From a virus (taxonomy: Duplodnaviria; Heunggongvirae; Uroviricota; Caudoviricetes), in the IMG/VR virus record IMGVR_UViG_2667527839_000007: a DNA stretch of 4,669 nucleotides. The stretch is one strand, 5' to 3'. The notes under the pieces were generated by a model that had not been told where the DNA came from, ran no database searches, and saw nothing but the letters and a program-made list of their open reading frames with translations. The first letter of the stretch is position 1; the number at the start of each line of letters is the position of its first letter. The position numbers were made by a program, and so were the translations under genes. This document shows, one piece after another, positions 52-2,021 of this stretch.

Positions 52-207
52 TTACCCTGACGTGCATTGCTCAAGTTTTTTAGCCAGCACAAAACTGGCT
101 TTTTTATAGCCATTGAAAACCAGCCGTAAGTAGCCAGGTGTTGAGCCAACTTTTCCGGCCAACTCGCCCTGCTGTTCTTTGGTTAAAGAGTCCCAATACG
201 CTTTCAT
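52..207 (-). CDS. Cro/YdaS-family small HTH regulator (51 aa), divergent from the CI-like repressor
   Basis: The ORF-track entry 52..510 is a read-through; the internal ATG at 205-207 (minus) is preceded by GGAGGT (plus 217-222) with a 9-nt spacer. Product MKAYWDSLTKEQQGELAGKVGSTPGYLRLVFNGYKKASFVLAKKLEQCTSG has an HTH-like core resembling, from memory, YdaS/Cro-type prophage regulators. Divergent position opposite a CI-like gene. Confidence 0.7.
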   Translation of the reverse strand: MKAYWDSLTKEQQGELAGKVGSTPGYLRLVFNGYKKASFVLAKKLEQCTSG

Positions 208-210
208 ACA

Positions 211-233
211 ATATGTACCTCCTGTGTACATAT
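211..233. promoter_or_regulatory. Operator 1: palindrome ATATGTAC-N7-GTACATAT
   Basis: Perfect 8-bp inverted arms at 211-218 and 226-233, core TGTAC-N7-GTACA. The 7-bp spacer contains the cro Shine-Dalgarno (plus CCTCCT 218-223). Same core as operator 2 and the site at 1018-1036. Confidence 0.55.
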
Positions 234-297: not shown

Positions 298-972
298 ATG
301 AAAACAATCCATGACATCCGGCGGTCTAACGCCAGAAAACTGAGAGATGGTGTTGGCGGGAATTCTTCCTTTGCCACTATGATTGATCGCGAGCCAACCC
401 AGACCAGCAGGTTTATGGGAGATGGGGCTACTAAAAATATCGGTGACAGCATGGCACGACACATCGAAAAATGTTTCGACCTGCCTGTCGGATGGCTCGA
501 TCAAGAACACCAGACAACGAACATCACAAAAAAACCTGATGTTTCAATCACTAATAAACAAATCACATTAGTCCCTGTCATATCATGGGTACAGGCCGGA
601 GCATGGAAAGAAGTTGGATATTCTGAGGTTGATTTGAGCACAGCAGAAACGTATCCCTGCCCTGTACCCTGTGGGGAAATGACTTATATCTTGCGGGTGA
701 TAGGTGATTCAATGATTGATGAGTACCGCCCGGGAGACATGATTTTTGTCGATCCTGAAGTACCTGCCTGCCACGGTGACGACGTTATTGCATTGATGCA
801 CGATACAGGCGAAACCACCTTCAAAAGGTTGATAGAAGATGGGACACAGCGTTATCTCAAAGCGTTAAACCCAAACTGGCCTGAGCCTTACATTAAGATC
901 AACGGTAATTGCTCTATAATTGGTACAGTGATTTTCTCCGGAAAACCAAGAAGATACAAAATCAAAGCCTAA
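298..972 (+). CDS. CI-like prophage repressor: N-terminal HTH domain plus C-terminal LexA/S24-type autopeptidase domain (224 aa)
   Basis: C-terminal half aligns by eye with lambda CI: VQAG cleavage-site motif (Ala100-Gly101, nt 595-600), GDSM with Ser138 (nt 709-711), TFKRL with Lys176 (nt 823-825), and the LNPNWPEP / GTVIFSG region. N-terminal about 70 aa is HTH-like. Divergent to the cro-like gene and followed by a strong terminator. Confidence 0.88.
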   Translation: MKTIHDIRRSNARKLRDGVGGNSSFATMIDREPTQTSRFMGDGATKNIGDSMARHIEKCFDLPVGWLDQEHQTTNITKKPDVSITNKQITLVPVISWVQAGAWKEVGYSEVDLSTAETYPCPVPCGEMTYILRVIGDSMIDEYRPGDMIFVDPEVPACHGDDVIALMHDTGETTFKRLIEDGTQRYLKALNPNWPEPYIKINGNCSIIGTVIFSGKPRRYKIKA

Positions 973-1039: not shown

Positions 1040-1216
1040 GTACCCAACCGAAACAACGAACAGGCAGGACGCCCACGAAGTAGCCGCCTAGGGCATATGA
1101 AGTCCAGGATGATTCGTTGAGTCATGTTGTGCCACCAGGCAATCATGTTAAAGCAGGTGTATGAAATGAAAGTCCAGATTTTAAACAATAACTGTGAAGT
1201 CGTTTGGGCGTAAAAC

Positions 1217-1423
1217 ATGACCGCGCGTAGACCAAGGGAGGAAAAAGTGGGAATAGTTAGAAATCAAGCAGATATATTGAAAATCAGCTCTGAATTACTT
1301 GGAGTTTTGAAAAGTGAGCTCACCGCACATGGCATCGAGCCCACTGACGAAAACTTAAGTTGGGTTTTGTCGATTATTCAACAATCACTCAAGCCCAGCC
1401 TCAGCAAACTTTTTATCGAGTAG
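1217..1423 (+). CDS. Hypothetical small protein, first ORF downstream of the PL-like promoter (68 aa from ATG 1217; 58 aa if GTG 1247 is used)
   Basis: The open frame has a weak SD before ATG 1217, but a strong AAGGGAGG (1234-1241) sits 5 nt before the in-frame GTG at 1247. N-terminus from 1217 is Arg-rich (MTARRPREEK). No family recognised. Its 3' end overlaps the convergent minus-strand ORF by 39 nt. Confidence 0.4.
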   Translation: MTARRPREEKVGIVRNQADILKISSELLGVLKSELTAHGIEPTDENLSWVLSIIQQSLKPSLSKLFIE

Positions 1424-1576
1424 TGCTTCGAACTTATCGTAAAGCTTGCTTATGTCGTCTATCGGGTTTTCTGACGTACTGTAATTTTTATCTGATGTCA
1501 TGGCAGCAGTCTGATATGCAGTGTGAGTCTTAACCGATAGTTGGAATAAATAAAGAATTTTTTCTTCTTTGGTCAT
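1385..1576 (-). CDS. Hypothetical small protein (63 aa), antisense to the early-left direction
   Basis: ATG at 1574-1576 (minus) preceded by AAGGAAAT (plus 1581-1588 complement) with a 5-nt spacer. Product MTKEEKILYLFQLSVKTHTAYQ...KKFAEAGLE is charged and likely helical. The longer ORF-track version (1385..1618) would start at GTG without an SD. No family recognised. Confidence 0.45.
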   Translation of the reverse strand: MTKEEKILYLFQLSVKTHTAYQTAAMTSDKNYSTSENPIDDISKLYDKFEALLDKKFAEAGLE

Positions 1577-1608
1577 AACTATTTCCTTCTTGGCTATATG
1601 AAAACACC

Positions 1609-1637: not shown

Positions 1638-1837
1638 AGACAGGCACATAACAGCTAAGTATTTTCAACCAAAGAGAATCCTTAGCGTTGTGGTGAATGC
1701 GGCTCAGCGCACGCGGGTTAAGGTTGAGGCTGACAGTCGACCTTCTGTGGATACCCACCCGTCTGGTGTGCAACCTTCGCCAGGCACCGGGAGGCACCCG
1801 GCACCCGGCACCACAACTTTATGCTGTGTGTAGTCCT

Positions 1838-1884
1838 GGCGGTACCAGTTTGTACCCTTGCTTCCGGCTGGTACCGTCCTTTTT
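1838..1884 (+). terminator. Hairpin plus T5: candidate tL1-like terminator or attenuator upstream of the yfdP-like gene
   Basis: 9 perfect base pairs (1840-1848 CGGTACCAG with 1868-1876 CTGGTACCG), extendable to 11 with a G-U pair, a 19-nt loop, then TTTTT at 1880-1884. The loop is larger than in canonical terminators, so confidence is low. Confidence 0.35.
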
Positions 1885-2021
1885 ACAAAACAGAGAAGAG
1901 CATCACCGGACGACGGGCTCATAACCCAATCCATCCGGGCGGCTGCCACCGCAGGTGTTCTTCTCTGTTTTGTGGAGAAACTAATCGGCCTTGCAGGGTC
2001 GATATGATGAGGAGCAGCAAA

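Follow-up and report, generated by a model that had tools for sequence, protein, structure and literature searches.

The stretch of viral DNA considered here (the window: 4,669 nucleotides (nt) of IMG/VR virus record IMGVR_UViG_2667527839_000007) carries two small genes that run toward each other and overlap at their 3′ ends, a short distance downstream of the early-left promoter, PL, of a temperate phage. The pair is a real two-gene accessory cassette, spanning about 1211-1610, between PL and the early-left genes of temperate phages of the e14/SfV/SfII type. It is also one allele among many: the same position, behind the same short leader, is filled by unrelated small genes in other phages. 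An earlier note on this DNA had singled out two convergent open reading frames (ORFs) with a 39-nt overlap and a strong Shine-Dalgarno site before each, and they were found as described, the plus-strand site standing before a GTG at 1247. Three things go beyond that note: the true start of the plus gene is GTG 1247, roughly two dozen alternative cassettes stand behind one leader, and the two genes are strictly inherited together.

Two convergent genes

The plus-strand gene (1247-1423; phrog_15476) starts with GTG and encodes an acidic protein of 58 amino acids (aa) for which two to three helices are predicted; its Shine-Dalgarno site, AAGGGAGG (1234-1241, plus strand), lies 5 nt before the start codon. 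Read from its first ATG the ORF would be longer (1217-1423, 68 aa). Homologues of the protein are 57-64 aa long and begin at the position of GTG 1247, so the true start is this GTG and the product has 58 aa; relatives have a purine-rich Shine-Dalgarno site ahead of an ATG or GTG at the same place. The start at ATG 1217, which has no Shine-Dalgarno site and is not where relatives begin, was ruled out, and since it fails, so does the idea that the extra residues (‘MTARRPREEK’) open an arginine-rich, N-type antiterminator. The minus-strand gene (1576-1385; phrog_2605; WP_000159356.1; SfII_36) starts with ATG, 5 nt after the Shine-Dalgarno site AAGGAAA (1582-1588, minus strand), and encodes an acidic protein of 63 aa predicted to form a helical hairpin. 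It is called a ‘hypothetical protein’ in phage SfII and by the Prokaryotic Genome Annotation Pipeline (PGAP); the plus ORF is absent from both annotations. The coding regions overlap tail to tail at 1385-1423, 39 nt over which the codons on the two strands are exact reverse complements, and about 140 nt of each ORF are free of the partner gene.

Because the window holds 51 ORFs of at least 30 aa, a bare ORF is no proof of a gene. Coding was assessed by the Nei-Gojobori method on codon alignments of diverged representatives (19 for the plus gene, 18 for the minus gene), using only the non-overlapping parts. There the plus gene has a ratio of nonsynonymous to synonymous differences per site (pN/pS) of 0.40 (pS 0.65) with 0 stops in 19 diverged sequences, and the minus gene a ratio of 0.36 (pS 0.76) with 0 stops in 18. 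The five other frames contain 16-64 stops, and the named frame has the lowest pN/pS of the six. Shine-Dalgarno sites and starts are conserved for both genes. Judged by these substitution patterns, both ORFs are real genes under purifying selection at the protein level, which disposes of the suggestion that one of them could be spurious. A chance open frame antisense to a real gene might have seemed reasonable for the plus ORF, given its lack of annotation and the many spurious ORFs in the window, but the idea is vanishingly improbable and can be called refuted: no diverged relative has a stop in the frame outside the overlap, and some members of the plus family are N-terminally extended, reaching 171 aa.

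Neither product falls in a named family, as had been said before: the PHROG search returned only groups of unknown function (phrog_15476 for the plus protein, E = 7e-50; phrog_2605 for the minus protein, E = 1.4e-33), and Pfam, NCBIfam and PADLOC gave no match for either protein at E <= 0.1. Of the plus protein, 49 relatives were recovered; conservation centers on a core made up of roughly the last 48 aa. N-terminal extensions lengthen this core to proteins of 121-171 aa in Edwardsiella and in some metagenomic relatives, and one Klebsiella protein has a ClpX-type zinc finger followed by the core. The minus family is small, with 16 representative clusters within 1.84 billion proteins. AlphaFold2 models the plus protein as a bundle of two to three helices (predicted local distance difference test score, pLDDT, 73) and the minus protein as a helical hairpin (pLDDT 77). 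Foldseek comparison of both models with PDB and BFVD gave no match with E <= 0.001; profile searches of PDB gave no match with the plus family and chance-level matches only (E >= 0.7) with the minus family. The homology and structure-prediction check named in the earlier note thus ended in helical models only, with no family or fold match. The isoelectric points (pI) are 5.2 for the plus protein and 5.0 for the minus protein. Neither has a hydrophobic segment, and the plus protein lacks a transmembrane segment; the highest Kyte-Doolittle mean over 19 residues is 0.80 for plus and 0.46 for minus. Both proteins are small and acidic, and predicted to be soluble and helical.

Co-inheritance of the pair

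Relatives gathered by protein and translated searches come from E. coli/Shigella, Klebsiella, Kluyvera, Atlantibacter and Serratia, and, at about 40% identity, from Edwardsiella phage EPP-1. Both genes are matched, always in convergent orientation, in 109 of 110 sequences (109 fetched loci and the window), which amount to 33 distinct variants from six genera; in two of the 33 variants (L109, L110) the minus gene is shortened. All relatives retain an overlap, of 39, 36, 33, 27 or 24 nt (ends set by hand). Three more lineages, reached only through relatives of the plus protein, also have the minus gene, with an overlap of 27-36 nt and different repressor families alongside. Among the matches listed, minus family M00 faces the plus family in 42 of 43 loci, and the lone exception comes from a wrongly picked ORF. 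Co-inheritance is strict in every lineage sampled, down to about 40% identity and whatever the repressor type. Conservation and synteny, which had been proposed as a check, therefore come out clearly: both ORFs are open and coding-like across relatives, and always convergent.

One allele of a hypervariable slot

The minus gene begins about 30 nt from a leader of about 60 nt (1588-1645) that is better conserved than either gene and is common to all cassette types. Scanning viral contigs for the core of this leader found at least 120 loci. Among the matches listed, 139 distinct loci have an ATG and a Shine-Dalgarno site on the minus strand at a fixed distance from the leader, and the minus-strand ORFs behind it fall into at least 27 clusters with no detectable mutual similarity, about 24 of which are 55-163 aa long. 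Since one leader precedes at least 27 unrelated minus-strand ORFs, the slot is a hypervariable cargo site and the pair described here is one of its alleles. The leader-linked ORFs include zinc-ribbon proteins, one membrane protein, YmfI of the K-12 element e14, and an 81-aa SfV ORF without annotation. Cargo differs between the same flanks in SfV, e14 and others, which bears out the earlier placing of the pair in a variable accessory position just after a repressor-controlled PL. Between cassette types the coding overlap differs in length, with 4 nt at the low end and about 100 nt at the high end. Of 5,426 complete E. coli genomes, 1,938 contain the flanks of the slot and 61 this particular cassette.

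Other cargo is as obscure as this pair. For ten other cargo families of the slot PADLOC gave no match, and in the PHROG search seven matched groups of unknown function and three matched none; a Pfam scan of nine of these and related proteins gave sub-threshold matches only (Tim44, and a ClpX zinc finger in P0060). The SfV slot also holds a convergent overlapping pair, with an overlap of 83 nt. There, the 81-aa ORF (SfV, L003, 3360-3605, minus strand; phrog_3311) has a Shine-Dalgarno site, stands behind the same leader and converges on orf33; from these features it is probably a gene that the SfV annotation missed.

The plus-strand early proteins of the slot are mosaics (L195, L196, L158, L178, L204, L170 and others), in which one and the same N-terminal module can face different minus genes, as is the case for a ClpX-type zinc finger, for a ‘MNEQNLKHVIALLLED’ module and for an ‘EPxIxANGxxDEExxxW’ coiled coil. 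How closely each part of the early protein tracks the opposing gene was measured over 52 non-redundant combinations with 17 minus families, using the 30 plus-protein residues just outside the overlap and, for comparison, N-terminal segments. None of 19 C-terminal clusters faces more than one minus family (adjusted mutual information, AMI, 0.97), versus three of 20 N-terminal clusters (AMI 0.81). Because the C-terminal module tracks the minus family, the unit that is exchanged is the C-terminal module of the early protein together with the opposing small gene. In sequence comparison, this tracking fits a cognate pair.

The conserved leader

Only the Shine-Dalgarno site separates the leader from the start codon of the minus gene, so a signal for expression of that gene must lie in the leader or beyond it. 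The leader contains a hairpin (hairpin A), a set of interleaved repeats and, on the minus strand, a candidate extended -10 promoter, TGgTATCTT (1617-1609), with a weak -35 element, TTTTCA (1638-1633), 18 nt upstream. In alternative leaders the -10 hexamer reads TATTCT, TATGCT, TATACT or TATCCT. TG and TAT are retained, and the T at -10 position 6 is invariant, despite changes in the neighboring stem sequence. This pattern suggests that the element may work as a minus-strand promoter.

Hairpin A (1588-1593 paired with 1607-1612) uses the same bases as the candidate -10, and its stem covaries among leader types through compensating changes. It is more stable as plus-strand RNA, by virtue of G-U pairs, in 73 of 80 variants (Wilcoxon p ~1e-8), and the window's own variant is an exception. 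The leader probably also has a role in the PL transcript. An H-type pseudoknot could arise from the interleaved inverted repeats at 1614-1645 (ACCAC/GTGGT and GCCTG/CAGGC); its third loop would be A-rich. Covariation supporting a pseudoknot was absent from the main family, where the stems are invariant and only the loops vary; fully compensated stem changes occur in a single divergent locus (L046).

The early-left promoter and the left edge of the cassette

The site directly downstream of a PL-like promoter, as it had been described, is confirmed: a PL-type early-left promoter, TTGACA-16-CATAAT (plus strand, 11 of 12 consensus matches), lies at 1012-1039 and contains an operator copy. The motif TGTAC-N7-RTACA has three copies only in the window, at 214-230 and 264-280 (in the cro/repressor intergenic region) and at 1019-1035 (inside PL), with 0 expected by chance; the copies are probably repressor operators. 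Because PL shares this motif only with the cro/cI intergenic region, 1012-1039 can be read as a repressor-controlled PL, with both promoter activity and repression inferred from the motifs.

Downstream of PL, a recombination scar (1145-1213, plus strand) consists of the first 21 codons of SfV orf33 (MLKQVYEMKVQILNNNCEVVW) followed by an alanine codon and a stop, which makes a stub of 22 codons. Comparison of the SfV orf33 translation with the window places the end of SfV homology near 1210. On this alignment the stub is the scar of a recombination event that swapped an SfV-type for an SfII-type cassette, and it sets the cassette's left edge at about 1211.

The PL leader itself (1046-1135, plus strand) is kept at 83-94% identity in phages of Salmonella (ST64B), Klebsiella, Yersinia, Pantoea and Citrobacter that are otherwise unlike the query. 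Its predicted fold is not unusual (z = -0.8). A put-type antiterminator RNA was considered for this leader and set aside, since it has no sequence similarity to HK022 20-32 kb, a segment that should include PL and putL.

Related arrangements in known elements

The closest parallel is the ymfJ/ymfI pair of e14 in K-12, which occupies the same slot of the same backbone, with the repressor ymfK, an identical PL and operator, the conserved leader and, downstream, the STnc100-like region also seen in the window. There, plus-strand ymfJ converges on minus-strand ymfI and overlaps it by 63 nt. Both YmfI and YmfJ, of about 100 aa each, are unrelated to the window's proteins, with which they share no cluster; because they too are uncharacterized, the e14 pair gives no functional lead. 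The literature on them offers expression data and no function: ymfI-ymfJ has been scored as a convergent excludon by RNA-seq (PMC12288877), and ymfJ is induced late in the SOS response along with ymfM and intE (PMC11002266).

The Rac prophage of K-12 is unrelated and shows a likeness of position (L233, 2406-3457): racR is followed by ydaG-ydaF, which converge on antisense sieB with a 4-nt overlap, and then come the small RNA (sRNA) KilS and kilR. Here too, a gene antisense to the early-left operon lies near the repressor and converges on small PL-proximal genes, and the comparison with sieB drawn in the earlier note is apt for position and orientation. The order of repressor, small PL genes, convergent gene and sRNA suggests a recurring early-left design. 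The lysogen produces SieB, whose antagonist, Esc, is encoded by the phage itself. The proteins themselves differ: SieB is a membrane protein of about 160-190 aa, whereas the window's minus protein is a predicted soluble helical hairpin of 63 aa without a SieB Pfam match, and Esc is an internal product of sieB, whereas the plus gene is a separate, convergent gene.

More general classes fit in part. As in excludons, no terminator separates the two overlapping genes, and each is preceded by a promoter or candidate promoter of its own; excludons, however, are defined by transcript overlap and anticorrelated expression, whereas this pair is known from sequence, and here the coding regions overlap, not only untranslated regions. 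Like morons and other accessory hot spots (the rexAB position of lambda, the defense and anti-defense islands of prophages), the slot holds variable cargo between conserved flanks. A classic moron, by contrast, brings its own promoter and terminator; here the candidate promoter sits in the backbone leader, the cassette lacks a terminator, and its cargo is tied to the opposing early gene through that gene's C-terminal module. Polymorphic toxin/immunity systems (contact-dependent inhibition, Rhs and colicin-type) resemble the slot in that a variable C-terminal module co-varies one to one with an adjacent small gene and N-terminal modules are exchanged at a domain boundary; they differ in that the partner there lies downstream on the same strand rather than converging, and in the slot all parts are tiny and no secretion context is present.

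A proposed mechanism and its alternatives

A tentative reading, to which we give slightly less than an even chance, is that an early lytic plus gene and an antisense minus gene, probably expressed in the lysogen, form a cognate pair coupled by convergent transcription. The plus gene would be silent in the lysogen; its product would be the first one made from the PL transcript, soon after induction or infection. Transcription of the minus gene would run in the opposite direction, starting at the candidate extended -10 promoter of the shared leader and most likely taking place in the lysogen. Because no terminator lies between the genes (no terminator-like site was found on either strand within 1217-1650), each transcript would run antisense through the other gene, giving an excludon-like, mutually exclusive expression; the mutual antisense transcription proposed earlier is an expected consequence of this layout. 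Strong firing of PL would then turn the minus gene off. The most likely roles would be a lysogen-made effector for the minus protein (in exclusion, defense or host modulation) and an early lytic counter-protein for the plus protein, a scheme that would follow the logic of sieB and esc without homology to SieB or Esc. Support by analogy comes from the e14 ymfI-ymfJ excludon, from the SOS induction of ymfJ with the repressor-controlled genes of e14, and from the antisense position of sieB in Rac.

Several observations weigh against a cognate, coupled pair. Neither protein resembles a defense, exclusion, toxin or antitoxin family in the family and structure searches. The candidate minus promoter agrees with the consensus at only 8 of 12 positions, and a general promoter scan does not flag it; since the wobble pairs favor hairpin A on the plus strand, conservation of the leader may serve the PL transcript rather than a minus promoter. 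Co-inheritance is explicable as simple linkage of overlapping or adjacent DNA. In addition, a Buttiauxella remnant (L014), the sole exception among the 110 sequences, has the minus gene alone; the minus gene is broken in L094/L095 (at window positions 1434 and 1558) and frameshifted in L235 (2645-2830), with the plus gene intact in each. These breaks in several prophages are single-base deletions or a frameshift, for which sequencing error in base runs is possible. Because each gene survives with its partner broken or absent, neither is indispensable to the other in the lysogen.

Such points lead to the alternative that these are real accessory genes with no functional relation, a PL-operon gene and a separate moron pressed together in a compact region, with linkage only and no coupling. 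We consider this possible though somewhat unlikely. It would explain why N-terminal plus parts combine freely with different minus genes elsewhere in the slot, why the overlap length varies so widely among cassette types, why either gene may decay while the other persists, and why there is no complementary charge between the proteins (pI 5.2 versus 5.0). It sits poorly, though, with two genes that are still found together at identities as low as about 40%, next to at least four types of repressor and with several downstream backbones, with a plus segment outside the overlap that tracks the minus family in 17 of 17 families, and with the lack of a terminator between the genes in every cassette type, which is unexpected for independent units. 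The locus could instead act mainly at the level of RNA, with leftward transcription from the leader braking a leaky PL in the lysogen by collision and antisense pairing, much as lambda OOP RNA acts against cII, and with the 63-aa product secondary. The convergent geometry without a terminator, the scoring of e14 ymfI-ymfJ as an excludon, and the fact that the leader rather than the cargo is the conserved feature across cassette types all agree with this; we nevertheless hold it to be distinctly unlikely, because the minus ORF is under protein-level purifying selection with a conserved Shine-Dalgarno site and start, and a brake of RNA would not require some two dozen different intact protein-coding cargos.

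The earlier note had also offered the locus as an accessory, exclusion or toxin-antitoxin-like module, and of this the accessory slot stands and the toxin-antitoxin part does not. An addiction module in which one protein is toxic and the other protein or an antisense transcript neutralizes it would suit two small, co-inherited antisense genes in a prophage, a typical location. We find it highly doubtful, however: PADLOC, Pfam and NCBIfam gave no toxin or antitoxin match, and each gene persists naturally with its partner broken. Type II systems are co-directional operons, unlike these genes on opposite strands, and neither a known toxin or antitoxin family nor a DNA-binding antitoxin domain was matched; type I toxins are hydrophobic and are faced by a non-coding antisense RNA, unlike this locus, where neither protein has a hydrophobic segment and both strands code for proteins under purifying selection, although the locus may in addition act through RNA. 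A further possibility extends the cognate pair to the slot as a whole, as a polymorphic specificity system in which the small protein of the lysogen would recognize the C-terminal module of the matching early protein. It is unlikely; under it, a resident prophage would neutralize, or be neutralized by, only phages of the same cassette type. The slot would then supply a second layer of ‘immunity’ beyond repressor and operator, with at least two dozen specificities generated by domain-boundary exchange and switched by convergent transcription from the shared leader.

Significance of the slot

Much of the setting is familiar. The layout is annotated in e14 and resembles ydaF/sieB of Rac, and both repressor-side accessory slots and convergent excludons are known. 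A search of the literature did not find the plus ORF described as a conserved gene, the strict co-inheritance of the pair to about 40% identity, some two dozen unrelated cargos behind one leader, or a C-terminal module that tracks the cargo. With a real plus gene, a co-inherited unit and many alternatives behind one leader, what had been ‘hypothetical’ ORFs become a defined, testable system. The backbone of the slot is present in about a third of complete E. coli genomes, K-12 with e14 among them, and every cargo family in it is functionally dark. Hypervariable small-gene loci beside phage repressors have repeatedly proved to be exclusion, defense or counter-defense loci. The cargo of this slot is probably used in conflicts between phages or with the host, and the slot offers some two dozen candidates, each with a built-in partner and a simple genetic switch.

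The prophage remnant and neighboring features

The window is a 100% match to DNA of E. coli strain 81 (L001), where it makes up a temperate-phage remnant about 4.6 kb long, bordered on the left by IS1, just past a short cro-like gene, and on the right by IS3, after yfdT; the repressor gene, PL and both small genes are left intact between the insertion sequences (IS). By these matches the window is an IS-bounded remnant of a prophage of the SfII/SfV/e14 type. Its nearest phage is Shigella phage SfII, with 99.4% identity across 1052-1700, and the flanks of the cassette are common to SfII, SfV and e14. The cro-like gene occupies 52-228 (minus strand). It is followed by a cI-type repressor gene of the LexA/S24 family (298-972, plus strand; Peptidase_S24, E = 1.5e-26), annotated as a LexA family protein and named ymfK by PGAP, with a terminator-like hairpin at 984-1003, 3′ of the gene.

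Beyond the leader, the region 1665-1886 (plus strand) gives a sub-threshold match to the prophage sRNA family STnc100 (RF02076; 30 bits versus a gathering score of 47, E = 8e-4). Downstream of it come yfdP, yfdQ, yfdR, a DUF551 gene and yfdT, in that order. The STnc100-like region overlaps an ORF that PGAP calls a frameshifted hypothetical protein, the counterpart of ymfH in e14, and a hairpin with a U-run behind it, near 1838-1886, forms its end. STnc100 has been tied to PasD sRNAs in a 2026 preprint.

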